A DNA stretch of 64,000 bases from Candidatus Yanofskybacteria bacterium (GTDB lineage Bacteria > Patescibacteriota > Minisyncoccia > 2-02-FULL-40-12 > GWA2-44-9): the NCBI GenBank assembly GCA_020852375.1, contig JADZAY010000003.1:6-64005 (forward strand). Reading direction: 5' to 3'. The translations under genes and the position numbers were made by a program. Shown in pieces: positions 4,389 through 52,524 of this stretch. The notes under the pieces are model-generated. The model saw nothing but the letters and a program-made list of their open reading frames with translations, was not told the origin of the DNA and made no database searches. Numbering within the stretch: the stretch's first letter is position 1; every line of letters starts with the position of its first letter.

Positions 4389-5156
4389 ATGGTCCGTTTG
4401 ATGGTAGGACTTGGAGCTCTTGCCCTCCTTGGAGGGTGCCTCATTGTCCTGCTTGCGCGGGCTGTGATGGCCCCGCGAGCATTCGTGAAGTCGCTCTCGC
4501 TGAAGCGTTTTGTGGGAACCCTGCTTGATTCCGGCGTTGCAGCTGGGGCGATACTTCTTTCCGCGGTTCTTGCGTGGATGCTCTTCGGAGTGCATCCGCA
4601 TCGCCTTGCGATGTCGCATGGAGACCGCGGGAGTTACGGCGTCATCTCCGACGATCGTTTCATGGCCGAAGGGGTAGCGGTGAAGCGGTTCACCGCTGTG
4701 TATGTGCCCTCTCGCATCATCAGTGTTGTGGGGATCCCGTGGCCCGTTCCCGAAAGCCTTGAGGTCGAAGTCGTCTACCAGGGGCGCGGGGGTGCCGAGG
4801 AAACGTGGGAGCACACATTCCTCCTCGCGTGCGACGAGGAGAGCGCGTGCGTTCCGGTGTATCGTCTTACTGGAGTCCAGCTGTGCGCGGAGCGGGATGA
4901 GGGAAGAAGCACTCCGGCCTGCGGTCCATTCGTATACCTCGGAAACAAGGGGTGGCCGATGGTACTTCCAAGACCTCCGGTTCGCGCCCCGCTCCCGGAC
5001 CTCGTTCCATCCCCGGGCCCGGTTCCGAACCCGAGTCCGACGCCGACGCCTCCGGTGAAGCGAGAGAACAATCTGTTCAGAGTTGCGCCCGGCGCGATCA
5101 TCGCCCTTGCCCCGCCTGTTCATAAGGCGGGGCGTTTTTCTGCGCTACCATGGTAA
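4389..5156 (+). CDS. Hypothetical membrane/secreted protein with Pro-rich C-terminus
   Basis: N-terminal TM helices and a PxP-rich tail. Preferred over the antisense Arg-rich ORF 4287..5123. Confidence 0.45.
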   Translation: MVRLMVGLGALALLGGCLIVLLARAVMAPRAFVKSLSLKRFVGTLLDSGVAAGAILLSAVLAWMLFGVHPHRLAMSHGDRGSYGVISDDRFMAEGVAVKRFTAVYVPSRIISVVGIPWPVPESLEVEVVYQGRGGAEETWEHTFLLACDEESACVPVYRLTGVQLCAERDEGRSTPACGPFVYLGNKGWPMVLPRPPVRAPLPDLVPSPGPVPNPSPTPTPPVKRENNLFRVAPGAIIALAPPVHKAGRFSALPW

Positions 5157-5165
5157 AATGGCCGT

Positions 5166-6194
5166 ATGGCGAATATCGCGATAAATGGGTTCGGGCGTAT
5201 CGGGCGGGCGCTCTTCAAGCTTGCACTTACCAAGTCGGAGCTTAATATCGTTGCCATCAATGATCTGGGGGACCCCGAGAACCTAGCGTACTTGCTTCGG
5301 TTCGATTCCGCATACGGGCGGTATCAGCACGACGTGTCCGTGGAGGAAGTCGACGGAAAGACGTGGCTTGTAGCCGGGGGTCGGCGCTTCCTCTTTCTTC
5401 AGGAGAAGGATCCCGCGGCTCTCCCGTGGGGTGATCTCGGCGTCGATATCGCCGTCGAGGCGACGGGCGTCTTTGAGAGCTATGAGAAGGCGCGGGTGCA
5501 TCTGACCGCGGGTGCCAAGCGGGTCGTTCTTACTGCGCCTGCAAAGGATGACGATGGCCCGGATGCCCGTACAGTGCTGGTCGGGGTGAACACCGACCAG
5601 CTTAAGACGTGCACGCTGTCGAACAATGGGTCGTGCACGACGAATTCCGCTTCCCCGGTCATTCAGATATTGCAGGAGGGCCTCGGCATCAAGAAGGCGT
5701 TCTTGAATACCGTCCATGGATATACCGCGACACAGAGCCTAATCGATGGGCCGACGAAGGGACACGACTTTCGCCGAGGGCGCGCAGCGGCGGCGAATAT
5801 CACGCCCTCGAGTACGGGCGCGGCGATCGCAGTAGCCCGTGTTGTCGACGGTATGGACGGTCATTTTGATGGAATGTCCCTTCGAGTCCCGATCCTTACC
5901 GGGTCCATTTCCGCGATCACCTTCCTCGCAAAGCGAAAGACGACCCCCGAAGAGATCAATACGGTGCTCGAGAGTGCCGCAAAGGATCCGCGATGGAGCG
6001 GCGTGTTTACGGTGACCCGTGACCAGCTGGTGTCGTCGGATATCATCGGTGACCCGCATGCCGCGATCGCGGATCTATCACTGACCAAGGTTGTGGACGG
6101 CGATCTGTGCGCTGTGTACAGCTGGTACGACAATGAATTCGGCTATACGAACTCTCTTGTCATGCACGTCCTAGCAGCGGCTGCCGCATTGTGA
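5166..6194 (+). CDS. gap: Glyceraldehyde-3-phosphate dehydrogenase, type I
   Basis: NGFGRIGR Rossmann motif and active-site SCTTNS (catalytic Cys retained). Full-length 342 aa. Confidence 0.95.
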   Translation: MANIAINGFGRIGRALFKLALTKSELNIVAINDLGDPENLAYLLRFDSAYGRYQHDVSVEEVDGKTWLVAGGRRFLFLQEKDPAALPWGDLGVDIAVEATGVFESYEKARVHLTAGAKRVVLTAPAKDDDGPDARTVLVGVNTDQLKTCTLSNNGSCTTNSASPVIQILQEGLGIKKAFLNTVHGYTATQSLIDGPTKGHDFRRGRAAAANITPSSTGAAIAVARVVDGMDGHFDGMSLRVPILTGSISAITFLAKRKTTPEEINTVLESAAKDPRWSGVFTVTRDQLVSSDIIGDPHAAIADLSLTKVVDGDLCAVYSWYDNEFGYTNSLVMHVLAAAAAL

Positions 6195-6249: not shown

Positions 6250-7113
6250 ATGTCCGAATATATCTCTGAAAAGAAGGTGCAAGAGCTCGAGCTGAAGGCG
6301 AACGAGATCCGCCAGAGCGTTATTGAGATGCTTGTTGCGGCGGGCTCGGGGCATACCGCAGGGCCGTTGGGTATGGCAGACATCTTCACCGCCATGTATT
6401 TTCACGTGCTTAACCACGATCCGGAGAACCCTGACCTTTCCTCGCGGGATCGTTTGGTGCTCTCGAACGGGCATATCACTCCCGTCCGGTATGCTGCCAT
6501 GGCGCACGCAGGGTATTTCCCGATCGAGGAGCTGAAGACGCTTCGGAAGCTGGGGAGCCGCCTTCAGGGGCATCCCGAGCGCTCCCGGCTTCCCGGTCTT
6601 GAGACGACTTCCGGCCCGTTGGGATCGGGTCTTGGGCAGGCCGTTGGTATGGCGCTGGCGGCGCGGATGGACCGTGCGTACTGGCGGACATACTGCTTCA
6701 TGTCCGACGGTGAGCAGGACGAGGGTGTGGTGTGGGAATCGGCGATGTTCGCCGGCAAGGAGCGGCTTTCGAATCTCACGGGCATTATTGATCGCAATAA
6801 TATCCAGATCGATGGCATGACCGAGCAGGTCATGCCGCTGGAGTCGCTGCGAGCGAAATGGGAGGCGTTCAATTGGCATGTGCTCGAGGTCGATGGCCAC
6901 AACATCGAGGCGTTCGTGGATGCAATTCAGCAGGCGAAGGCCATCTTCGAGAAGCCGACCGTCATTATTGCGCATACGATCCCGGGAAAAGGAGTGAAAG
7001 AGATCGAGTTCGATTACACATGGCACGGGGTGCCTCCCAAGGCGGATGAGGCCAAGCGATTCCTTGCCGAGTTGCGGACGCTTCGTGGTACGATACAGAG
7101 TGAACATCAATAA
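6250..7113 (+). CDS. Transketolase, N-terminal (TPP-binding) subunit of a split transketolase
   Basis: GSGHTAGPLGMADI...SDGEQDEG TPP-binding motifs. 287 aa, corresponding to the N-terminal third of Tkt. Confidence 0.9.
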   Translation: MSEYISEKKVQELELKANEIRQSVIEMLVAAGSGHTAGPLGMADIFTAMYFHVLNHDPENPDLSSRDRLVLSNGHITPVRYAAMAHAGYFPIEELKTLRKLGSRLQGHPERSRLPGLETTSGPLGSGLGQAVGMALAARMDRAYWRTYCFMSDGEQDEGVVWESAMFAGKERLSNLTGIIDRNNIQIDGMTEQVMPLESLRAKWEAFNWHVLEVDGHNIEAFVDAIQQAKAIFEKPTVIIAHTIPGKGVKEIEFDYTWHGVPPKADEAKRFLAELRTLRGTIQSEHQ

Positions 7114-7216
7114 TCCCGTTAGAGTCCAACAAGCAAGCTATGACATCAGGCATCGGCAACTCGACTTATGTTCCAGCGGTCTTCCGTGCCGTATTGTTTT
7201 TTGGACTCTAACGGGA
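7114..7216. repeat. Perfect ~16-bp inverted repeat (tcccgttagagtccaa / ttggactctaacggga) separated by ~65 nt
   Basis: Read directly from the sequence. Located immediately after the tkt-N stop. Confidence 0.8.
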
Positions 7217-7647
7217 TGCTCCGCGACCTTACCATGATCTTCTCGGTACTCGTTTCGGTGTTCTCGCTGGGTTTTGGAGTGTACAAGAACATCGAGGCGG
7301 GGAATGCGCGTGGGTTTGCGTATGAGCAGGCATATCGCATTCTCGGTGCGGTCGAGGGTGCCAATATCGGTCCGGCGGCGAAGGCGTCGATCGTGGATGC
7401 CGCGTTTGCATCATTCGCCACTCCTCCTCCGGTGATCGACCTCTCTCGTTCGAGCGCCGACACTACGGTTTCCGCGGAGGCGTGCACTGAGGCGGCTCGT
7501 TCTCAATGTATCGCTCTCGCTCGCTCGCTCGCAGGTGCGAATGCACAGTGCGTGCGCGAGCGGGATGCTGGCGTTTCATGCGAACATGCGGTGGCGCTTC
7601 AGACAGCTATCGAGCAAACCGCATGCGTGCAATGTTTTATTCGCTGA
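7168..7647 (+). CDS. Small Cys-rich membrane-anchored protein (hypothetical)
   Basis: TM helix then a soluble region with 6 Cys (ACTEAARSQC...CVRERDAGVSC...TACVQC). Start may be the internal M at 7216. Confidence 0.45.
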   Translation: MFQRSSVPYCFLDSNGMLRDLTMIFSVLVSVFSLGFGVYKNIEAGNARGFAYEQAYRILGAVEGANIGPAAKASIVDAAFASFATPPPVIDLSRSSADTTVSAEACTEAARSQCIALARSLAGANAQCVRERDAGVSCEHAVALQTAIEQTACVQCFIR

Positions 7648-7648
7648 T

Positions 7649-8029
7649 ATGGAAAAACGAATGCTCTTCCCGTTGACGATGTTCTTGTTTGCCGGCGTTT
7701 CATTTGTGTTTGGGGGTTGGCAGTATTTCCAGGCGCGCGCCACGCACCAGGCATCTCAGCAGCGGATGGCATTCATCCTGACTTCGATCGAGGAAAGCGG
7801 CGTGTCGCGTGTTCAGAAGCAACAGCTCTACGCGCGCATCATGGACGGACTTCCCGCCGCGCCTAGCGTATTCGGGATCGATGTGTCCGGCTCATTCGCA
7901 AGTCCTGGGAGTGGCGACGCCTGCACGAGCGAAGGCCAGCGCACCGTGTGCCGTGCGCTCGTTGTGCGGGGGGTGTCGCGCGATGCGCAAAAGGCTATAT
8001 GTGGCGCGTGCTATCCCAGTATGGAGTAG
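7649..8029 (+). CDS. Small Cys-rich membrane-anchored protein, paralog-like of the preceding ORF
   Basis: ATG overlaps the previous stop (tgATATGg). TM helix plus a Cys pattern (ACTSEGQRTVC...AICGAC) resembling the upstream ORF. Confidence 0.45.
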   Translation: MEKRMLFPLTMFLFAGVSFVFGGWQYFQARATHQASQQRMAFILTSIEESGVSRVQKQQLYARIMDGLPAAPSVFGIDVSGSFASPGSGDACTSEGQRTVCRALVVRGVSRDAQKAICGACYPSME

Positions 8030-8229
8030 GTTTCGCATATTTCATGGCATGATCATGCACGGCGAAAGGAGGTGGAGAGCATCATGAGTACCGGTCTTTT
8101 GTTCGGACTTATCGGTGTCGCTGTATTGGTAGTTGCAGGAATCATCTGGGGACAGAGCAAGTAGCCTGATCGTCCCACGATAGCGCTGACTATGGTGGGA
8201 TGCATGAGGACGGTTGCCTTGTTCATCGT

Positions 8230-9213
8230 ATGAGCACACCTAGAAACACAATTGGTTCCCGGGCCGCCCCGCTAGACATGGTTCCGACGCGGGACGGGTA
8301 TGGGAAGGGAGTTGTTGATGCCGGCGAACGGGATGAGCGGGTGGTGGTTTTGTGCGCCGATCTTACCGAGTCGACCCGGAGCCACTGGTTTGCCGAGCGA
8401 TTCCCCGAGCGTTTCATTCAGGTTGGCGTTGCGGAGCAGAATCTTGCCGTCATCGCATCCGGCCTCGCGGCTGCAGGAAAGATCCCATTTATCGCGAGCT
8501 ATGCCACATTCAGCCCCGGCAGGAACAACGAGCAGATACGAACGAACATTTGTCTCAATGATGTGCCGGTGAAGGTGGTCGGCGCACACGCGGGCATCAG
8601 CGTTGGCCCCGATGGGGCTACGCACCAAGCCCTCGAAGACATCGCACTGATGCGCGTTCTACCGAACATGACGGTCGTTGTCCCGTGCGATGCGATCGAG
8701 GCGCGGAAGGCAACGCGTGCCATTGCCGAGACCGCGGGGCCTGCCTACCTCCGTCTCGGACGGGAGAAAAGCCCAGTGATTACGGACGACCAGACTCCCT
8801 TTGAGATCGGCCGCGCGCATGCACTGCAAGAGGGCGATGATGTTGCGATCATTGCGTGCGGGATACTGGTGCACGAGGCGCTTGTGGCCGCTGATTTACT
8901 GGCGAGCGAAGGTATTGCCTGTACCGTGCTGAACAATCACACGATCAAGCCGATGGATGAGGGCGCAGTGGTTTCTGCTGCGCGGCGGTGTGGGGCGGTG
9001 GTCACCGCCGAAGAACACCAGGTCGCCGGTGGGATGGGGTCTGCTGTCGCAGAGATGCTTGCGCGGGTCTATCCGGTGCCGATTGAATTTGTCGGTATCG
9101 GGGACCGATTCGGGGAGTCCGGTGCTCCCGCGGAGCTCATGAACGCATTTGGGCTTACGGCAGAGCGCATCGTTGTCGCCGCCAAGAATGTCCTTGCCAG
9201 AAAGAGCGGCTAG
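8230..9213 (+). CDS. Transketolase, C-terminal (pyrimidine-binding + C-terminal domain) subunit
   Basis: FIQVGVAEQNLAVIASGLA...VGAHAGISVGPDGATHQALEDIALMR matches the Tkt Pyr and C-terminal domains. Confidence 0.9.
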   Translation: MSTPRNTIGSRAAPLDMVPTRDGYGKGVVDAGERDERVVVLCADLTESTRSHWFAERFPERFIQVGVAEQNLAVIASGLAAAGKIPFIASYATFSPGRNNEQIRTNICLNDVPVKVVGAHAGISVGPDGATHQALEDIALMRVLPNMTVVVPCDAIEARKATRAIAETAGPAYLRLGREKSPVITDDQTPFEIGRAHALQEGDDVAIIACGILVHEALVAADLLASEGIACTVLNNHTIKPMDEGAVVSAARRCGAVVTAEEHQVAGGMGSAVAEMLARVYPVPIEFVGIGDRFGESGAPAELMNAFGLTAERIVVAAKNVLARKSG

Positions 9214-9236
9214 TATCAGCCATTCTTAGGGCGAAG

Positions 9237-9265
9237 TTTGACTTTCCTGAAAAATAGAGTATACT
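9237..9265 (+). promoter_or_regulatory. Sigma70-like promoter (TTGACT-16nt-TATACT) upstream of the DGR target gene
   Basis: ttgactttcctgaaaaatagagtatact, ~115 nt upstream of the start codon at 9384. Confidence 0.5.
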
Positions 9266-9383
9266 TAACATGCGGGGTGACATCAGTCCCTGCGTTGTTT
9301 GAAAACGAAGTATCACCGCACTGTGCGGCCCCGACCTCGGGCAAGAGGGACGTACACGCGCAACCAAGCGCAAGGAGACAGTC

Positions 9384-9989
9384 ATGAGCGAATTCGCATC
9401 CGCTCCGTACACTGCCGGGCAGTTGAATGCCATGGTCAAGAAGCTCGTGGAGCTCGCGGGACAGGATGGCCCCAAGAAGCTCTTGTCCGGTGAGCTGGTC
9501 CTCAAGGCGGCCAATCTCCTCCATCTCGTCACCACCAATCCCGTCCCCGCCGTGAAACGCTTCGCCGCCAGCGACCACTTCAAGGTCGGCACTTCCAAGA
9601 AGGCAGCGGTCCGTATCGGCTATCTCGGCGACAACTTCAAGAAGCACTTCCTGGCCAAGGTGGAGGTGAATGTTCCCGCCACCACGCTGGTCTTCTCCAC
9701 GCTCACTCGAAGCTCGCTGGATGCTCCCATTCTCGCTGAGCTGGGCACTCAAGCGCAGACAACCCTGGCCTCCCTCTGGGAGTGCCTGAAAGCTCAGGGT
9801 CACGGCCAGCCGGGCACCCTGCTGACCGATGGTCGATGGAACATCTTCTACATCTCAGACGCCAACGGCAACCCCTGGGCCGTGTGCGCGTCCTGGCACG
9901 TCGGCTACGGCGACTGGCGCGTGTTTGCCTACTCGGTGGACTACCCGGGCGAGTGGGACGGCGGCGGTCGGGTGGTGTCTCGCAAGTAG
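9384..9989 (+). CDS. DGR target (variable) protein; C-terminal variable region
   Basis: The 3' terminal ~112 nt (VR) is a near-copy of the downstream TR, differing only where the TR has A. C-terminus ...WHVGYGDWRVFAYSVDYPGEWDGGGRVVSRK. Confidence 0.8.
   Translation: MSEFASAPYTAGQLNAMVKKLVELAGQDGPKKLLSGELVLKAANLLHLVTTNPVPAVKRFAASDHFKVGTSKKAAVRIGYLGDNFKKHFLAKVEVNVPATTLVFSTLTRSSLDAPILAELGTQAQTTLASLWECLKAQGHGQPGTLLTDGRWNIFYISDANGNPWAVCASWHVGYGDWRVFAYSVDYPGEWDGGGRVVSRK
9873..9986 (+). repeat. DGR variable region (VR)
   Basis: Aligns base-for-base with TR 10281..10394. 17 mismatches, all at TR adenines. One further mismatch in the terminal 6 nt (IMH-like). Confidence 0.85.
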
Positions 9990-10017
9990 GGCTTGGGGGC
10001 TTGATTGCTCAGCCCTC

Positions 10018-10046
10018 GGACCGGTGCGGTTTATCCGCACCGGTCT
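10018..10046 (+). terminator. GC hairpin (11-bp stem, 4-nt loop) plus T-run downstream of VR; terminator and/or DGR homing-associated stem-loop
   Basis: gaccggtgcgg-ttta-tccgcaccggtc followed by tttttatttt. Confidence 0.6.
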
Positions 10047-10280
10047 TTTTATTTTCAGAAGTATTTGATATATTTTCAGCGGATAGTAGGCGAATCTGCC
10101 GGCGGTCACGGCTTCCGGCGGCCGAACTCTAGGCGTGCATACTTAGATGATACCGGAGCCTAAAAAATGAAGATACTTGGTGCGGAGTGCTAGGGCATTC
10201 CACATGCCGAATACGATACAGTCTCAAGAGGCCGGGCAACCGGAACCAAGGGACAGTGGCGCGGACGGCACTTCGTACGC

Positions 10281-10394
10281 ATCTGGGCCGTGTACGCGAA
10301 CTGGAACGTCGACTACGGCGACTGGAACGTGAATGCCAACTCGGTGGACAACCCGAACGAGTGGAACGGCGGCAATCAGGTGGTGTCTCGCCAG
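10281..10394 (+). repeat. DGR template region (TR)
   Basis: Carries AAC-rich codons (AAC TGG AAC GTC GAC TAC GGC GAC TGG AAC GTG AAT GCC AAC ...). 26 adenines, of which 17 are substituted in VR. Confidence 0.85.
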
Positions 10395-10414
10395 TCTCTT
10401 CACACAATAGCCCC

Positions 10415-10750
10415 TTACGGGGTTATTGTTTTCTTTTGCCATCCACCCAACATCCTCCCAATCTCATTGAGTTTTAGTGAAAGGGCGATATACTTCTTAT
10501 CGTTCAATGCTTGGAATTCCCAGCAAATCCGCAGGAAGAACTTGAGTGCATCGAGTGCTGTGGATGCCCGCTTCAAGTATCCGTCCTTTTGTCCGGGTTG
10601 ACGATAGGTCGCCGTGAAGATATTTTCTATGATGACAATAAAAAGCGAATCGATTTTTATTCCGAGACTATGCCGCAATTCTTTGCTGAACTGGAGCCGA
10701 TAGATGTGCCAGATTTTATAGGCGTCAATCAGTTTTTGAATGATTGGCAA
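10415..10750 (-). CDS. avd: Avd-like accessory variability determinant (four-helix-bundle / 23S rRNA IVS protein family)
   Basis: ~110 aa. C-terminal ...LSLKLNEIGRMLGGWQKK resembles the IVS-protein/Avd C-terminus. Located between TR and RT. Confidence 0.65.
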   Translation of the reverse strand: MPIIQKLIDAYKIWHIYRLQFSKELRHSLGIKIDSLFIVIIENIFTATYRQPGQKDGYLKRASTALDALKFFLRICWEFQALNDKKYIALSLKLNEIGRMLGGWQKKTITP

Positions 10751-11729
10751 GGTCTGGTTGGGGGGGGGTCTTCATAGTTTTGATACTATCACTTCCGTCG
10801 AGAACTTGCTCGGTGCATGGCAGGAATTCGTGCGCGGCAAAAAGACCAAGCCCGATGTACAAGAGTTCGGCCTTGGCTTGATGGATGCCATCCTCACTTT
10901 GCATGATGACCTCGTCACCGATTCTTACCACCATAGTCCATATCTCAAATTCCGCATCAATGACCCAAAGCCTCGCGATATAAGTAAGACCATTGTTCGC
11001 GACCGCCTCCTACATCATGCGCTCTACCGAGTGCTTTATCCATTCTTTGACGGGAAGTTCATTGCTGATTCCTATTCTTGCCGAGTCGCCAAGGGGGCGC
11101 ATCGAGCGCTGAACCGGTTCCGCGCCTTTGCCTGCCAGGTCAGCAAAAATCATACCCGTACCTGCTGGGTGCTAACATGTGATATTCGGAAGTTCTTTGC
11201 CAGCATCGATCATGGCATTCTGAACGACATCCTAGAAGCGCACATCTCCGACCCTGATACTCTCGGTCTCTTATCCGAAATCATCGAGAGCTTCTCACCC
11301 GGCTTACCCTTGGGCAACCTCACCTCTCAGCTTCTCGTGAACATCTACATGAATGAGTTCGATCAGTTCGCAAAACGACAACTCAAGACCAAGCACTATA
11401 TCCGCTACGCGGATGACTTTGTATTCTTGCATCAGGACAAGGGTTATTTGGAAGAACTGCTCCCGAGGGTCGGCGCCTTTCTCAGTGAGCGATTGAAGCT
11501 CAATCTGCATCCAAAAAAAGTATCTATCACGACTCTCGCCTCCGGTATCGACTTTCTCGGCTGGGTGCATTTTCCCGACCATCGGGTTCTACGGACAACC
11601 ACGAAACGGCGGATGATTCGGCGGGTTGTTAGCGGTACAACCGACGAACAAGCCGCGTCATATCGCGGCTTGTTGAGTCACGGCAACACCAAGAAACTGA
11701 TTAGTTTGCTTCCTGCTTCGGGAGCTTGA
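10740..11729 (+). CDS. DGR reverse transcriptase
   Basis: RT motifs present, including YADDFVF. The motif-4 residues LPLGNLTSQLL give the DGR-specific [ILV]GxxxSQ signature in place of the group-II QGxxxSP. Start uncertain (possibly TTG ~10758, after a G8-9 homopolymer). Confidence 0.85.
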   Translation: MIGKVWLGGGLHSFDTITSVENLLGAWQEFVRGKKTKPDVQEFGLGLMDAILTLHDDLVTDSYHHSPYLKFRINDPKPRDISKTIVRDRLLHHALYRVLYPFFDGKFIADSYSCRVAKGAHRALNRFRAFACQVSKNHTRTCWVLTCDIRKFFASIDHGILNDILEAHISDPDTLGLLSEIIESFSPGLPLGNLTSQLLVNIYMNEFDQFAKRQLKTKHYIRYADDFVFLHQDKGYLEELLPRVGAFLSERLKLNLHPKKVSITTLASGIDFLGWVHFPDHRVLRTTTKRRMIRRVVSGTTDEQAASYRGLLSHGNTKKLISLLPASGA

Positions 11730-12255
11730 AGAGTTCTTTGAGTTTCGCAAAGTCTGCTTCGAGCAACACCTTCGCGTCCGGGTCGCGGAGCGCGCGCTCG
11801 GGGTGGAACGTCGGGAGCAGGCGGTATCCGCCCAGCGGGAATGTGCGGCCGTGGACGTTTTCCACGGGAATCCGAAGCCCGACACCGTTGAGCGCAAGGT
11901 TGCCGAGCGTGACCACGATCTCCGGGTTCACGGTCCGGATCTCTTCTTTCAGGAAGGTTGCATGGCTTTTGATCTCCTTTGGGGTTGGGAGCTTGTCCTC
12001 TTCCGGACGATACTTTACCACGTTCGTGACATATACCTTGCGGCGGTCGATTCCCGCGTCGCGCAGGAGCTTATTGAGCAGCTTCGCGTGCGGGCCGCCG
12101 AGCGGGGCACCTGCCTTCTCGCCATGGGCGCCAAGCATCTCGCTTACCACTACAACTTTCGCGCCGACAGATCCTTTTCCGAACACGATTTTTCGGCCCT
12201 TGAACTTCTCCTTGAGGGCCTTATTGACCGAAGTGAGTGTCTTCGTGTCGGTCAT
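11701..12255 (-). CDS. Uracil-DNA glycosylase superfamily protein (family 4/5-like)
   Basis: UDG-fold motifs VVVVSEMLG...GAPLGGPHAKLL and C-terminal HP(E) motif. 184 aa. Confidence 0.65.
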   Translation of the reverse strand: MTDTKTLTSVNKALKEKFKGRKIVFGKGSVGAKVVVVSEMLGAHGEKAGAPLGGPHAKLLNKLLRDAGIDRRKVYVTNVVKYRPEEDKLPTPKEIKSHATFLKEEIRTVNPEIVVTLGNLALNGVGLRIPVENVHGRTFPLGGYRLLPTFHPERALRDPDAKVLLEADFAKLKELFKLPKQEAN

Positions 12256-12338
12256 ATGAGTAATGCAATACTACCATGTCAGCGTGGTTTTGGCAAGGTT
12301 TTGCAGGAAACCGGCCATAGGCCGGTTTCCTGATGAGG

Positions 12339-12357
12339 GTGGGCGACGAAGGAATCG
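12339..12357. repeat. 19-bp direct repeat of the tRNA-Ile 3' end (gtgggcgacgaaggaatcg), att-like
   Basis: Identical copy at 12527..12545, inside and just beyond the tRNA-Ile 3' end. Confidence 0.7.
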
Positions 12358-12527
12358 CCCTCGGCTCTCGGCGCGTCGTCACACGCCTCGGCCCTGCCTG
12401 TCGGCAGTCGAGCTGGGCACGGCCTCGCGGCGCCACTCGAGGTGGCGCATCGCTCCGGCCTTCGATTCCCTCGTCTGTTCATAATGCAGACGACACGGAT
12501 GCCAAACGGCATCCGTGTCGTCCCTTG

Positions 12528-12599
12528 TGGGCGACGAAGGAATCGAACCTTCGACCTCTGTCTTATCAGGACAGCGTTCTACCACTGAACTAGTCGCCC
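12528..12599 (-). tRNA. tRNA-Ile (anticodon GAT)
   Basis: The reverse complement folds as GGGCGAC-TA-GTTC..., with anticodon stem CTGTC/GACAG, loop CTGATAA and T-arm GGTTCGATTCC. No CCA is encoded. Confidence 0.85.
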
Positions 12600-12738
12600 A
12601 TAGCTGGGAAATCATAACCCGAAAGCTGGTATTTTGCAACTTTTCTGGTATGCTGGGTGTCTCTGGGCTCATACAGGAATACGTGTGTGCCCGGTGTTCG
12701 AGCGAGCGCAACGCAGTTGCGTTGTCCCGTTCTCATTT

Positions 12739-12812
12739 GGGCCCATAGCTCAGCTGGCTAGAGCGCCTCATTTGCAATGAGGAGGTCACCGGTTCGAATC
12801 CGGTTGGGTCCA
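12739..12812 (+). tRNA. tRNA-Ala (anticodon TGC) with G3:U70 identity pair
   Basis: GGGCCCATAGCTCAGCTGG...CCTCATTTGCAATGAGG...GGTTCGAATCCGGTTGGGTCCA. Confidence 0.9.
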
Positions 12813-12835
12813 CTCTATCGCGGTATCCGTACGCC

Positions 12836-13468
12836 ATGATCTCGCACGACGTCCCCTTTTCATCGCAGTATACCGATCTCGGGGATCATGAATGGCGTGC
12901 CCGCGGGTGCGGCATCACGTCCCTCAAAATGGTGATGGACTTCTGGCACCGCGTCACGGGAAGTCGTTGTGCTACGACTGTCGACGAGCTTCTTGCGCGG
13001 GGGCGGGCGATCGGCGCTTACATCCCGGGGGTTGGGTGGTCTCACCGCGGTCTGGTGAATCTTGCGCGCGAGTACGGCTATGAAGGGTTCAATGCCGATC
13101 ACGCCGAACAGGCCCCCATCCCGAAAGATGCTGCGGAGGCATGGGGTCTTCTGCTCAGTGAGCTTGCTCGCGGACCCGTGCTCGCGAGCGTCTACAGTGG
13201 GCTCGACCCGCACCGCGGCGGCGGGCACATCGTTGTGGTGACGGGTTTTTTTGACGGATTGGTCGCGCTCAATGATCCCGAGGAAATGCATGAGCGTGAA
13301 GGGCGACGCCTCATCGCGCTCGAGGTATTTCTTACCGCGTACAAGAGGCGGTTTATCGTTATCCGACCGGCGGAGGATTCGGCTGTGCACCACCCGACTG
13401 GTTCGGAGGCGACGCCGGGATCGCGGCAGGATTCTTCGGCCTTCGCAGTTTCAGGACGCCGATGGTGA
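12836..13468 (+). CDS. Papain-like cysteine peptidase, C39-like (peptidase_C39_2) domain protein
   Basis: Q...GCGITSL catalytic Cys context and a downstream His. The 3' end overlaps the convergent gene by ~110 nt, so the true stop or frame is uncertain. Confidence 0.55.
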   Translation: MISHDVPFSSQYTDLGDHEWRARGCGITSLKMVMDFWHRVTGSRCATTVDELLARGRAIGAYIPGVGWSHRGLVNLAREYGYEGFNADHAEQAPIPKDAAEAWGLLLSELARGPVLASVYSGLDPHRGGGHIVVVTGFFDGLVALNDPEEMHEREGRRLIALEVFLTAYKRRFIVIRPAEDSAVHHPTGSEATPGSRQDSSAFAVSGRRW

Positions 13469-49737: not shown

Positions 49738-50388
49738 ATGTCCGCCATGCCTTCGATATTTTTAGACGAAAGTGGTGACCTAGGTTTTCGTTCCAGCAAG
49801 AGCGGATCTTCCCGCTTCTTTGTTGTTACCGTTATGTTTATTCCCGGGAGTGTGCGACCGGTCGAGAAGGTAGTATCAAAAACACACGCGTATTTGAATG
49901 CGGCAAAAGGCGGTCATCCGGGCGTGCTGCACGCTGTCAATGAATCGCCTGCGGTTCGAAAATATTTATTAAAATTGTTAAGCAAGAGAGATTGCAAGGT
50001 GATGGCAATCGTTCTGAATAAGAAAAAAGTCTTTACTAAATTACACGAAGAAAAGGCTGTCCTATACAACTTTGTAACAAACATCTTACTAGAACGAATC
50101 TATGCGAGGCATATCGTGCCAACCGGTGACGCAATCGATCTCGTGGCTTCAAAGCGAGAAACAAACAAATTTTTAAACGAGAATTTTAAGGATTACCTAA
50201 GGAGGCAAGTAACCCAGAGAAAGGACGGGGAATTGCGCGTACACATCCAGACTCCCGCACAGCACAAGGCGCTTCAAGCTGTTGATTTTGCGAGTTGGGC
50301 AATTTTTAGAAAACACGAGAAGGGAGACCCCGAATACTGTAATATCATCAGAAATATAGTTGTTGAGGAGAGCCCTTTATTCCCCTAG
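49738..50388 (+). CDS. DUF3800-family protein
   Basis: N-terminal IFLDESGD motif is the DUF3800 hallmark. SD GGGAGG 7 nt upstream. Confidence 0.7.
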   Translation: MSAMPSIFLDESGDLGFRSSKSGSSRFFVVTVMFIPGSVRPVEKVVSKTHAYLNAAKGGHPGVLHAVNESPAVRKYLLKLLSKRDCKVMAIVLNKKKVFTKLHEEKAVLYNFVTNILLERIYARHIVPTGDAIDLVASKRETNKFLNENFKDYLRRQVTQRKDGELRVHIQTPAQHKALQAVDFASWAIFRKHEKGDPEYCNIIRNIVVEESPLFP

Positions 50389-50563
50389 AAATACAAAACC
50401 TCGTGCGCTATTTGCGAGCAACCTTCCGGAAGCCCACGCACGAGGAATTACTTGTAAGTACAATATACACGCTTGTTATCCACAAGTCAATGGCTAGGAA
50501 ACAAAGTCGCCATTGAGTCAAGTTCTGGCTCCGAGGCCGGTTTTTTGCTAGATTTGCCGAGCT

Positions 50564-51187
50564 ATGGATATAAACTATTGGTATTATCCTCTCAGTGCAA
50601 TTCCTCAGACGTTAGCCGCAATGATTGCGCTGGCTGCGACCTTTGCGGCTGTGAAGTTAGATGTTTTTTCTAAGAAACTTGCGGAAAGCCGCAAAGACTT
50701 AAGGCGTTTTATTCTTCTAGTGACAACGGGTCTGAATTCGGACGAAAAAGAGATACATACAATCGAACCTCTAAGCAACCTAGAATTTCTCAATCTTTAT
50801 AAGAAGGGTTTGGCGGGTCTCAAGAGCGGGGACCCAGCGTTCGGATTGGAGCCTGCAACCTACGCGAAGTATCAGCAGGAGATGTATAGGATAATTAATT
50901 CAGAGTGGAACAGCTTCTTTTCAGCTAAGGATTTTAGGATCCTGGGCTACCTTTCGATGAAGAAAGATACCTTCGAAGATCTTCTACAGAAACGAATCAA
51001 GATTATCCGGTGGACCACTCAAAGTCTGGTGTTCGCGGCAATTGTCGCGGGAATTTCCTTGGCTATATTACCGTGCTTTAAGTATTTTCACGGCTCAATT
51101 TTAATAGTCGGGCTCATTACGGGTGTCGCCGTGCTGAGTATTTTAGCGACTGCGTTCAATGTCTGGAGAATTGCGAGGATGGATTAG
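50564..51187 (+). CDS. Hypothetical membrane protein (1 N-terminal + 2 C-terminal TM)
   Basis: AT-rich ORF with hydrophobic segments at both ends. Confidence 0.5.
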   Translation: MDINYWYYPLSAIPQTLAAMIALAATFAAVKLDVFSKKLAESRKDLRRFILLVTTGLNSDEKEIHTIEPLSNLEFLNLYKKGLAGLKSGDPAFGLEPATYAKYQQEMYRIINSEWNSFFSAKDFRILGYLSMKKDTFEDLLQKRIKIIRWTTQSLVFAAIVAGISLAILPCFKYFHGSILIVGLITGVAVLSILATAFNVWRIARMD

Positions 51188-51270
51188 CTTTTCTGGTCGG
51201 ATTGCTGCTTTCATTTCAGCGATAAATTGGGGCCGTTGATCAGAAGAGTCGTCAAGAGTATGCTGGACGG

Positions 51271-51963
51271 GTGATACAAGATGATGTCATCAGCTATCGC
51301 CAGATGTGTGACGCTGAGGAGGTTCAGACTCTGCAACGAGGAATGAACTATCGGTTATGGACTACCTATTCGGTGGTATTAATGTCGCAACGTGGGAACG
51401 CGCCATATGCTGACCGAGTCCATGACGATGGTATTACCATCGAATACGAGGGACACGACGAGCCTCGGAGTTCCGACCAGCCGAATCCAAAAACGGTAGA
51501 TCAACCATCGCAGACATCGATGGGGACACCAACCCAGAATGGTCTATTTAAGAAGGCGGTCGATGATTTCAAGGCTGGCAAATGTGGGCCCGAAAAGGTG
51601 AAGGTCTACGAAAAGCTATATCCCGGGGTTTGGTCACTGAAAGGGTTTTTTGATCTACGGGACTACGAGATAGTTCATGATGGCGTGCGGAACGTCTTCC
51701 GGTTTATTTTGCGCCTGTCTGAAGACCCAACGGAAAGGGCGGAGCGTGTGTCGGCATCATTTCATACTCGAGTGATTCCTTCAGAAGTGAAGAAGGCCGC
51801 ATATAAGCGCGACAAGGGGCAGTGTCAGATTTGTGGGTCAAAAGTAAACCTTCACTTTGACCACGACCTCCCGTATTCGAAAGGAGGTTCGAGCCTCACT
51901 GCCGAGAATGTTCGACTACTCTGCGCTAAACACAACCTAGAGAAGGGTGCTAAGATTCAATAA
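51271..51963 (+). CDS. SRA(YDG)-like domain + HNH nuclease (type IV modification-dependent restriction endonuclease-like)
   Basis: C-terminal CQICGSKVNLHFDHDLPYSKGG...LLCAKHN HNH motif. N-terminal YADRVHDDGITIEYEGHD and GPEKVKVYEKLYPGVWSLKGFFDLRDYEIVHDGVRNVFRFILRL resemble SRA-domain conserved blocks. Confidence 0.65.
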   Translation: MIQDDVISYRQMCDAEEVQTLQRGMNYRLWTTYSVVLMSQRGNAPYADRVHDDGITIEYEGHDEPRSSDQPNPKTVDQPSQTSMGTPTQNGLFKKAVDDFKAGKCGPEKVKVYEKLYPGVWSLKGFFDLRDYEIVHDGVRNVFRFILRLSEDPTERAERVSASFHTRVIPSEVKKAAYKRDKGQCQICGSKVNLHFDHDLPYSKGGSSLTAENVRLLCAKHNLEKGAKIQ

Positions 51964-51978
51964 TTAATAATTTGCACA

Positions 51979-52524
51979 ATGTTTGACCCAAAAGCCGTGC
52001 TCGGGCTATTTCTTTCAGTGGTGGCAAGGTATTGGTACTTTGTTCTGCTGGCTTTTGCTGTTTGGGTTATTGGCGAGTTGCTCTCTAGGAGGAGGCGGCA
52101 GGGATATCTTTATAGGCGGAAGGACTGTCCAATGACAAAATCTGAGCAAGTTTTTTATAAAGTTCTCGCGGGCGTCGTCGATGGGCGGTATTATGTTTTC
52201 CCACAGGTTCATCTGGATGCTCTACTTGAGCACAAGGTTCCCGGGCAGCGGTGGCAAGCTGCGTGGAGGCACATCAATGAGAAGTCGGTTGACTTTGTTC
52301 TCTGTGACAAGACTTCTTTGCGCACAGAGTTGGTGATCGAACTCGATGATTTTTCCCATGAGCGACCTGATCGCATTGAACGCGATAAGGAAGTCGAACG
52401 GATTTTGCAGGAGGCGCACTTGCCGCTCCTTCGCATCCCGCGAAGTGAGAGTTACGCTGGAAATGAAGTCGCACGGTCGATTAGCGAGGGTGTCGGAGGG
52501 GCATCGTTTGGCCCTACGTTGTAG
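51979..52524 (+). CDS. DUF2726-domain protein (restriction-endonuclease-like fold) with N-terminal TM
   Basis: VDFVLCD...LVIELDDFSHERPDRIERDKEVERILQEAHLPLLRI matches the DUF2726 core (D...E.D..H). Confidence 0.65.
   Translation: MFDPKAVLGLFLSVVARYWYFVLLAFAVWVIGELLSRRRRQGYLYRRKDCPMTKSEQVFYKVLAGVVDGRYYVFPQVHLDALLEHKVPGQRWQAAWRHINEKSVDFVLCDKTSLRTELVIELDDFSHERPDRIERDKEVERILQEAHLPLLRIPRSESYAGNEVARSISEGVGGASFGPTL

Follow-up and report, generated by a model that had tools for sequence, protein, structure and literature searches.

A diversity-generating retroelement with an inverted avd gene and a covarying RNA domain 5' of its template region in Candidatus Yanofskybacteria

The 64-kb stretch of DNA that was analysed here as a whole (the window) is from Candidatus Yanofskybacteria (Patescibacteria) and carries, in this order, a target gene ending in a variable region (VR), an intergenic template region (TR), an inverted avd gene and a reverse transcriptase (RT) gene (Table 1). 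The setting is chromosomal, and the neighbouring genes (GAPDH, transketolase, UDG, tRNAs) are of the housekeeping kind. The UDG gene abuts the RT gene and was considered as a possible part of the system, but a homolog is present in only 2 of 80 loci and it was discarded as a neighbour that is not conserved.

Table 1. Features of the locus, in window positions.
Feature	Positions	Strand	Basis or remark
Candidate sigma-70-like promoter upstream of target gene, TTGACT-16-TATACT	9238..9265	+	Consensus scan, 10/12 matches
Target gene, 201 aa, VR at C-terminal end	9384..9989	+	
VR (variable region)	9875..9987	+	Last 113 nt of target gene; ungapped repeat with TR
IMH-like constant 3' end of VR (GGTGGTGTCTCGCAAGT)	9971..9987	+	Alignment; 17 nt
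CTTGG/CTTGA/CTCAG/CTCGG short repeats forming imperfect hairpin	9988..10016	+	RNAfold -14.2 kcal/mol; abuts stop codon
GC-rich hairpin and T-run	10018..10056	+	Terminator scan
Conserved structured RNA domain directly 5' of TR	10160..10281	+	Covariation; ~120 nt, three helices
Strand a (TGAAGA) of long-range duplex	10168..10173	+	Covariation
TR (template region), intergenic, 26 adenines	10283..10395	+	Repeat alignment with VR
Strand a' (TCTTCA), partner of 10168-10173	10397..10402	+	1 nt past TR/VR homology end
Stem-loop (11 bp, tetraloop TTAC) and T-run right after TR	10404..10441	+	Terminator scan
avd (accessory variability determinant), 111 aa, TTG start	10415..10750	-	Pfam bAvd PF22296
DGR reverse transcriptase	10740..11729	+	RVT_1 at 1e-20; motifs LPLGNLTSQ, YADD
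G9 homopolymer, avd/RT junction	10760..10768	+	Inside first codons of RT ORF

Repeat extension aligned VR with TR gap-free over 113 nt at an offset of 408 and with 84% identity, the homology ending in the target stop codon. The initial annotation had likewise described an ungapped pair of equal length, but its VR limits (9873-9986) need correction: the true 5' edge lies 2 nt further in and the 3' edge 1 nt further out. Its count of 18 mismatches is right for 9875-9987, whereas its own limits yield 20 because the first two columns fall outside the homology. Seventeen of the 18 mismatches coincide with TR adenines, of which there are 26 in the 113 nt (hypergeometric P = 8e-13), and at these sites VR shows G nine times, T five times and C three times, in agreement with what had been read from the sequence before. 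All 17 occupy codon position 1 or 2 and 14 of them sit in nine AAC/AAT codons of TR; the initial annotation had placed most changes in AAC codons. At positions other than adenine VR equals TR in 86 of 87 cases, the mismatches being adenine-specific rather than spread over non-A positions. The sole exception, TR C10392 against VR A9984, is found 3-4 nt before the homology end, in the terminal nucleotides, where an IMH/IMH* difference had been proposed. It is also the one difference between 9971-9987 and the TR copy of this segment (10379-10395), and no A-to-N change occurs 3' of 9970. Under the IMH concept (Wu et al., 2018, PMC5758913) a constant 3' segment that differs in this way between VR and TR can be assigned as a putative IMH/IMH* pair. 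No further copy of VR was found on either strand of the 64-kb window.

Read in the frame that matches VR, TR contains nine AAY codons and cannot give rise to a stop codon; the diversity that it encodes, at 17 variable residues, is on the order of 1e15 protein variants (about 2.5e15). The target protein is small, and neither a domain nor a transmembrane segment can be recognised in it; it belongs to a family of 61 members in which neither the family nor the present MAG copy is annotated, and a Foldseek structure search against the PDB gave no match. A structural hint suggests two parts, the N-terminal one helical/beta and the C-terminal one a divergent C-type-lectin-like domain with VR at its end, and the C-type-lectin-fold DGR variable proteins (TvpA 2y3c, Mtd, AvpA, TaqVP) and FGE-like domains are among the closest known systems. 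Two lines of evidence from relatives bear on the predicted hypervariability of the C-terminus. First, 43 homologs vary exactly at TR-A codons, with an entropy of 2.63 bits at these codons versus 0.88 (P = 1e-6). Second, in the pair of relatives L002 and L005 the TRs are 92% identical and the VRs 76% identical, and of the 27 positions at which the VRs differ, 19 are TR-A sites common to both (P = 4e-9). Exact-sequence look-ups of the Avd, RT and target proteins returned no contig on record, two metagenome scans, one using a VR pattern that was degenerate at A sites and the other a 30-nt VR-end/flank pattern, gave no match, and neither a second assembly of the strain nor a close variant was found by these look-ups and scans.

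The ORF between TR and the RT gene, which the initial annotation had called Avd-like with no mention of its strand, is read from the minus strand, VR, TR and RT being on the other one. It matches Pfam bAvd PF22296 with 49.6 bits over residues 4-107 of 111, above the gathering score of 40, and NCBIfam DivGenRetAVD NF033474 with 68.4 bits, under the cut-off of 80; against solved structures, a solved Avd included, there was no sequence match at E <= 1. The inverted, head-to-head arrangement of avd and RT recurs in 75 of 75 related loci and the TR/VR layout is the same in about 58, more than 55 of the related loci having A-biased TR/VR pairs of their own; as a whole, the layout is shared by dozens of Patescibacteria. 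This layout is architecture B3, 'TR-(avd)-RT', found in 90% of candidate-phyla-radiation (CPR) DGRs (Wu et al., 2018, PMC5758913), and it fits the cellular CPR DGR clade 2 (Roux et al., 2021, PMC8144416). With an upstream target, TR, reverse-strand avd and RT, the present element can be placed in B3. It is like the CPR B3 DGRs in host group (Patescibacteria), gene order and strands, in its cellular rather than phage context and in its small target with a C-terminal VR, and we see no difference in kind; judged from its sequence, it is typical of an already described DGR class that is abundant or enriched in Patescibacteria.

A DGR-type RT had been proposed on the strength of LPLGNLTSQ and YADD, and both motifs are indeed present in ORF 10740-11729. 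The closest solved structure is the Bordetella phage DGR RT, bRT (PDB 8ub7), at E 9.5e-45 and 156 bits over residues 14-299, while the next-best solved RT, of the group II/retron type, reaches 66 bits. The protein carries [ILV]GxxxSQ and conserves the equivalents of bRT R74 and I181, and by these motifs and its closest solved structure it belongs to the DGR clade. One could instead suppose a non-DGR enzyme, from a group II intron or a retron/defence system, standing beside a repeat that arose by chance or duplication, and NCBIfam lends this some colour in that its best model is the group II intron RT/maturase TIGR04416 (132 bits), with weaker retron and Drt models (at most 64 bits). These scores are far under the respective cut-offs of 300 and 200-600, however, and bRT is by far the closest solved relative. 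An Rfam search over 9200-12900 at E <= 1 returned two tRNAs and chance-level matches only, with no intron RNA, msr/msd RNA or retron family. A group II intron or retron identity for the RT was rejected on these grounds, and since the adenine-specific mismatches, the presence of Avd and the recurrence of the cassette with its own A-biased pairs in more than 55 loci also count against such an enzyme, we regard it as extremely improbable.

The RT gene probably starts at TTG 10758, which appears likelier than ATG 10740. The latter was set aside as the same codon is ATA or ACG in relatives, and the similarity around it exists because avd codons 1-3 lie on the opposite strand. Read on the avd strand, the G9 tract precedes the avd start by 9 nt. 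A run of at least eight G is present at this junction in 61 of 76 related loci and (GA)n of at least 12 in five of the 76; across the clade the tract ranges over G8-14 or (GA)n, and comparable runs outside the junction number only six in 780 kb. Its position relative to the RT reading frame differs among related loci, and a canonical in-frame RT start beside it is absent in 22 of 64 relatives (about a third). Literature searches on poly-G, homopolymer or phase variation in connection with DGRs yielded nothing relevant.

A slippage-prone G9 in the first RT codons, the relatives that have no canonical in-frame RT start and the GC content of avd (0.43) and RT (0.51), off the genome value of 0.58, would also suit a DGR that was once active and has since fallen silent or begun to decay, its VR/TR pattern being a record of past homing only. 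We consider this improbable. Compared with their families, the three ORFs (RT, Avd and target) are intact and full-length, the RT retains both the catalytic YADD and GxxxSQ, and the non-coding RNA elements score like those of relatives; moreover, the identity of VR and TR at non-A positions is of a kind that is quickly lost without homing. We hold with high confidence that the locus is an intact chromosomal DGR of the CPR type and of architecture B3, target(VR)-TR-inverted avd-RT. The complete DGR of the initial annotation is thereby upheld, with an A-specific repeat, a DGR-clade RT and a bAvd protein.

Immediately after VR, the clade is marked by CTT(N)G repeats (3.0 per 60 nt versus 0.34 in random segments, with 7-8 nt spacing), clusters of which are about 50-fold enriched at this place. 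A hairpin with a 5-nt loop and 12 pairs, of which nine are G-C, follows at 10018-10046 in the window. The GC hairpin noted before is where it was said to be, about 30 nt past VR, but it has 12 bp and a 5-nt loop in place of 11 and 4, it resembles a terminator, and another structure lies nearer to VR. It scores as an intrinsic terminator because TTTTTATTTT comes next. Of 60 related loci, 58 have a hairpin after VR and 35 a T-rich tail; the median distance from VR to the start of the strong hairpin is 51 nt.

We take the hairpin at 10018-10056 to be the target-gene terminator, and possibly a DGR target-recognition hairpin too. Whether it is merely the terminator, with recognition resting for example on the IMH-like end together with the hairpin of CTTNG repeats (9988-10016), seems to us evenly balanced. 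The terminator-like make-up of the hairpin, its distance from VR here and in the clade, the imperfect hairpin that abuts the stop codon and the enrichment of CTT(N)G arrays right after VR all speak for a terminator and nothing else, and we also count on this side that terminator roles for repeats of such a kind were considered by Wu et al. (2018, PMC5758913). On the other hand, the roles of terminator and recognition element are compatible, and the hairpin is kept in 25 of 60 loci that have no T-rich tail. The CTTNG cluster at 9988-10016 is moreover not distinctive within the window, where it is one of 32 and no stronger than the 31 others, and the 45 nt after VR fold only slightly better than shuffles (mean z = -1.2), which gives the repeat hairpin weak support.

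The RNA domain directly 5' of TR consists of P1 (10180-10191 with 10267-10278), the 3' edge of which is 4 nt before TR, P2 (10194-10198 with 10204-10208) and P3 (10221-10224 with 10251-10254), and GAATACGATACAG, GTGG and GA.GG are conserved in it as unpaired blocks. In related loci compensatory changes were observed at 18 of the 20 pairs, and the share of cells that pair is 97.5%, as against 73.7% after shuffling (0 of 500) and 31-54% for slid controls. When a covariance model was built with the window excluded, its single match in the 64 kb was the 5' domain (95.8 bits, E 5e-19); the domain has no match in Rfam. The long-range duplex a/a' likewise displays compensatory changes in many related loci, and cognate duplexes average 7.4 bp as against 6.05 bp for non-cognate ones (P = 1e-8). 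Just after strand a, the unpaired A10175 is nearly invariant.

The stem-loop that follows TR shares sequence with the stop codon of avd, which is read from the opposite strand. All 60 loci have such a stem-loop after TR, and 52 of them have a T-rich tail to it. The Avd-binding stem-loop of BPP-1 has an equal position and an 11-bp stem, and stem-loops of this type have been reported in CPR DGRs (bioRxiv 10.1101/2023.10.23.563531). By analogy, the stem-loop at 10404-10441 is a candidate Avd-binding site and/or a terminator of the TR RNA, a role as terminator alone being conceivable. A consensus promoter scan identified no promoter for the TR RNA.

Compared with the BPP-1 DGR (mtd-avd-TR-brt; PDB 8ub7; bioRxiv 10.1101/2023.10.23.563531), the present element has in common the adenine-specific transfer from TR to VR, the RT family with its R74/I181 equivalents, GxxxSQ and YxDD, the Avd protein, an IMH-like 3' end, a hairpin past VR and, immediately beyond the 3' end of TR, a stem-loop of 11 bp. 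It differs in that avd is inverted and placed between TR and RT, in its chromosomal setting and in its target, which is not a phage tail fibre. The differences extend to the RNA. In BPP-1 a structured spacer of ~140 nt lies 3' of TR, whereas here there is no room for one before the U-tract and avd, and a covarying domain is found 5' of TR instead; the upstream duplex strand adjoins TR in BPP-1 but is ~110 nt from it here. In this class the TR RNA thus appears to be organised differently from the phage prototype.

In retron non-coding RNA (msr-msd, a1/a2) the 5' strand of a duplex is followed by structured non-template RNA, the template and the 3' strand of the duplex. The topology of the 5' domain and duplex described here resembles this RNA more nearly than it does the phage prototype with its 3' spacer. 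The likeness is one of topology only, under which the start of reverse transcription would adjoin the duplex; the RT is of the DGR clade, Rfam gave no retron match, and a DGR template is copied into a chromosomal gene whereas that of a retron is kept as msDNA. No description of the 5' RNA domain, the CTTNG repeats or the G tract was found in the literature searched, the scope of which did not include Paul et al. 2017, reportedly the primary paper on CPR DGRs.

On the model of the homologous Bordetella phage element, a non-coding RNA of ~300 nt that contains TR would be bound by an RT-Avd complex, reverse transcription would put random nucleotides opposite template adenines, and the cDNA would replace VR with the IMH-like segment as its 3' limit. 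In the target protein 17 residues would then be re-coded on one face of the divergent C-type-lectin-like domain, no variant having a stop codon. By analogy, the a/a' duplex may set the site of cDNA initiation at the TR/VR homology end, P1 may serve as a stop at the TR 5' end, and the 3' stem-loop with its U-tract may both bind Avd and terminate transcription. We offer as a tentative proposal, one that we think has rather less than even chances, that B3 DGRs use a re-arranged RNA in which a covarying 5' domain for protein binding and for setting initiation is combined with a duplex to the TR 3' end, and that the G/GA tract at the junction is an on/off switch. If functional, such a hypermutable tract would mean that hypermutation is itself switched on and off stochastically.

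Taken by itself, the element is one more well-formed DGR in a class enriched in Patescibacteria, together with a structural hint that one unclassified CPR target family may have a minimal lectin-like fold. What is understood of the DGR mechanism comes from one phage element, in which the RNA requirements lie 3' of the template. The 60 loci with a covarying 5' RNA and a duplex that brackets TR lead to predictions on the initiation and the stop of cDNA synthesis that could be addressed by mutation, and these predictions concern the most abundant cellular DGR class.

On sequence evidence, the element is a genuine, complete diversity-generating retroelement (DGR), and the reading given in the initial annotation holds. 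Both a scripted comparison at an offset of 408 and a repeat finder recovered the same 113-nt ungapped repeat, one copy forming the variable region (VR) at the end of the target gene and the other the template region (TR) downstream; a search of both strands of the 64-kb window found no further copy. The two copies differ at 18 of the 113 positions, and 17 of these mismatches fall on adenines of the TR, which has 26 adenines in all (hypergeometric P = 8e-13). The adenine-specific pattern had been proposed with exactly these counts; the repeat limits originally suggested, also ungapped, begin 2 nt too early on the 5' side and stop 1 nt before the true 3' limit. Opposite the 17 mismatched adenines the VR carries G nine times, T five times and C three times. 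All 17 changes affect codon position 1 or 2 of the target ORF, and 14 lie within the TR's nine AAC or AAT codons. The single difference at a non-adenine position (A9984 in the VR, C10392 in the TR) is within the last 4 nt of the repeat, near the 3' end as had been noted, and the homology stops inside the target stop codon. Because VR and TR agree at 86 of 87 non-A positions, the sequence argues for recent homing in the window.

Features of the DGR (ORFs from the ORF listing, 9100-12000 read; window positions)
Feature	Position	Strand	Remarks
Target ORF	9384-9989	+	201 aa
VR	9875-9987		repeat copy 1
Imperfect hairpin	9988-10016		CTTGG-like repeats, directly after VR
GC hairpin and T-run	10018-10056		12 bp, scores as terminator
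Intergenic stretch			between target ORF and 111-aa ORF
RNA domain 5' of TR	10160-10281	+	three helices
Duplex strand a	10168-10173		A-rich block
Helix P1	10180-10191 with 10267-10278		closing helix of RNA domain
TR	10283-10395		repeat copy 2
Duplex strand a'	10397-10402		pyrimidine block
Stem-loop	10404-10429		11 bp, then T-run; overlaps avd stop codon
avd ORF	10415-10750	-	111 aa
RT ORF	10740-11729	+	329 aa
G9 run	10760-10768		9 nt upstream of avd TTG start (avd strand); inside first RT ORF codons

Profile searches identified the 329-aa ORF as an RVT_1 reverse transcriptase (RT). Against all solved structures its top relative is bRT of the Bordetella phage DGR (8ub7; E 9.5e-45, 156 bits, residues 14-299) and the second best a group II/retron-type RT at 66 bits, in agreement with the DGR-type assignment made initially. 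The alignment to bRT keeps the equivalents of R74 (KPR) and I181 (at the start of LGNLTSQ), and the protein has YADD. With every NCBIfam model for group II, retron or Drt enzymes, the score was far under the cut-off. The 111-aa ORF is bAvd by Pfam (49.6 bits, threshold 40) and scores 68 bits against the NCBIfam DGR-Avd equivalog, whose cut-off is 80. It had rightly been called Avd-like, but its orientation needs correction, since avd is inverted relative to the RT.

The target protein has no Pfam or NCBIfam domain in profile searches of both. A hypothetical protein of a Candidatus Yanofskybacteria MAG matches it at 100% identity, and the 61 homologs of the target, none of them annotated, come without exception from Patescibacteria or metagenomes. 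Aligning 43 homologs showed a conserved C-terminal scaffold, W-A-V...W...W-V-A-SV-P-W-G-RV-SR. Hypervariability is found in the columns whose TR codons carry A as first or second base (mean entropy 2.63 versus 0.88 bits, P = 1e-6), which bears out the earlier prediction of a hypervarying C-terminus. By its coding capacity, the TR can vary 17 residues, which makes about 2.5e15 proteins possible without ever creating a stop codon. AlphaFold2, run on the 43-homolog alignment, gave a confident model (pLDDT 93.8, pTM 0.80) with helices at 113-124 and 128-137 followed by four strands, the last three of which carry the VR; this model hints weakly at a lectin-type fold.

In a scan of species-representative genomes the RT had more than 559 relatives; nearly all of the best 80, at 59-69% identity, come from Patescibacteria. 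Of these 80 loci, 75 extend far enough upstream, and in every one of them avd lies head-to-head with the RT on the opposite strand. About 58 related loci have a detectable A-biased TR/VR pair, always in the order VR(+), 240-400 nt, TR(+), 3' end of avd(-), RT(+). This order corresponds to architecture B3 of Wu et al. (2018, PMC5758913), to which 90% of DGRs in candidate-phyla-radiation (CPR) bacteria belong. Two related DGRs, L002 and L005, have TRs that are 92% identical and VRs that are 76% identical, and 19 of their 27 VR differences are at positions with A in both TRs (P = 4e-9). This concentration at shared TR adenines is indirect evidence, from sequence comparison, that the class is active and diversifying. 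In another related locus, L058, a second A-biased TR/VR pair (5009-5933) lies downstream of the RT and has no match to the 5' RNA-domain model described below.

The neighbours of the DGR are GAPDH, a split transketolase, a UDG-family gene, tRNA-Ile and tRNA-Ala, and the element is therefore chromosomal. The transketolase N- and C-terminal halves are two separate genes (6250-7113 and 8200-9213) separated by two small unannotated ORFs (7168-7647 and 7535-8029). The UDG-superfamily gene (11701-12255, minus strand) runs towards the RT and shares 29 nt with the 3' end of that gene. We rejected it as a part of the DGR: it is probably unrelated, because a homolog lies nearby in just two of the 80 related loci. 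The genes for tRNA-Ile(GAT) (12527-12599, minus strand) and tRNA-Ala(TGC) (12739-12813, plus strand) are about 140 nt apart on opposite strands; the two form the pair usual in rRNA operon spacers, and the stretch 9200-12900 showed no rRNA gene. The GC content of avd (0.43) and of the RT (0.51) is under the window's 0.58, while the target (0.63) is not GC-poor; the enzymatic module of avd and RT may have a foreign origin or be under different constraints. Elsewhere in the window, GC falls to 0.44-0.49 at 50001-52000, against about 0.58 in the remainder.

Downstream of the VR, a hairpin is present in 58 of 60 loci across the clade. The GC hairpin that had been noticed past the VR does exist, with the correction that by score it is terminator-like. 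Over the clade, CTT(N)G repeats (CTTGG-, CTTTG- or CTTAG-like units at 7-8-nt spacing) are strongly enriched in the 60 nt after the VR, clusters being about 50-fold enriched; within the window taken alone the array is weak and its cluster unremarkable. After the TR, a pyrimidine block comes first and then a stem-loop, the latter in 60 of 60 loci and with a T-rich tail in 52 of 60.

Immediately 5' of the TR, and at the same position in all related DGR loci, lies a covarying three-helix RNA domain of roughly 110-120 nt, conserved in an alignment of 60 loci. RNAalifold predicted 20 pairs, 18 of them with compensatory changes. Pairing holds in 97.5% of cells of the named structure, compared with 73.7% in shuffles (none of the 500 as high) and 31-54% in slid controls. 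A covariance model, trained without the window or the four relatives closest to it, has exactly one match in the 64-kb window (95.8 bits, E 5e-19) and one full-length match in each held-out locus having upstream sequence; Rfam gave no match to the domain. In L002 there is also a weak second match on the other strand near the locus end (12855-12980, minus strand, 32.5 bits).

An A-rich block on the 5' side of this domain (consensus AAATGAAGA) is complementary to the pyrimidine block that comes right after the TR (TCTTCATTT). Many loci carry compensatory variants of this a/a' duplex (AACGAAGA/TCTTCGTT, AATGAAGC/GCTTCATT, AAAATAACA/TGTTATTTT, AATCTTGG/CCAAGGTT), and cognate strands pair better than non-cognate ones (P = 1e-8). 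The duplex would bring the 5' region beside C10396, the first base past the TR/VR homology, strand a is followed by the nearly invariant, unpaired A10175, and P1 ends 4 nt before the TR, at a place that would suit a stop element.

By analogy with the Bordetella system, RT and Avd would bind the TR RNA and misincorporate at A while copying it, and the resulting cDNA would replace the VR as far as its IMH-like end. The RNA data suggest that the TR is probably carried on a transcript of its own, about 300 nt long, which ends at the U-tract after the stem-loop. In the Bordetella phage BPP-1, initiation, termination and RT-binding elements are in a 140-nt spacer 3' of the TR, and the RNP structure includes an 11-bp Avd-binding stem-loop 3' of the TR, with similar stem-loops reported in 207 of 278 Avd-containing DGRs, CPR included (bioRxiv 10.1101/2023.10.23.563531). 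The class studied here has no room for such a spacer and has the covarying domain 5' of the TR instead. The stem-loop of the window, also of 11 bp, shares the place after the TR and may likewise be an Avd-binding element. Given the positions of C10396, A10175 and the end of P1, we propose that the a/a' duplex could correspond to the template:primer duplex or, failing that, act as a clamp defining the start, and that P1 could correspond to the 'cPRT Stop'. Alternatively, the a/a' duplex might itself be the stop-type duplex. The proposed topology of the TR RNA resembles that of a retron RNA.

The avd and RT starts lie within about 10 nt of each other, and since these 5' ends abut or overlap head-to-head, the promoter of each gene must be inside the other. 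In many loci avd begins with TTG. For the RT of the window we rejected ATG 10740 as probably not the start; TTG 10758 is likelier because the N-terminus then has the same length as that of bRT. At the junction, 61 of 76 related loci have 8-14 consecutive G residues beginning 9-11 nt away from the start of avd, and (GA)n replaces them in five; elsewhere these loci have hardly any comparable runs (6 in 780 kb). In 30 loci the tract is followed by an RT start codon, most often 13 nt downstream; in 12 (mostly G9), the window included, the tract is coding and in frame with the RT; and 22 (mostly G10 or G11) have no canonical in-frame RT start. The spread of lengths and the replacement of poly-G by GA repeats suggest that the tract may be a switch prone to slippage, but its role may equally well be structural or translational.

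A cellular DGR clade confined to Patescibacteria, with targets typically lacking recognisable domains, has been reported (Roux et al., 2021, PMC8144416), and the class to which this element belongs is already described and abundant. The parts that deserve specialist attention are the conserved 5' RNA domain, the duplex that brackets the TR and the junction tract.
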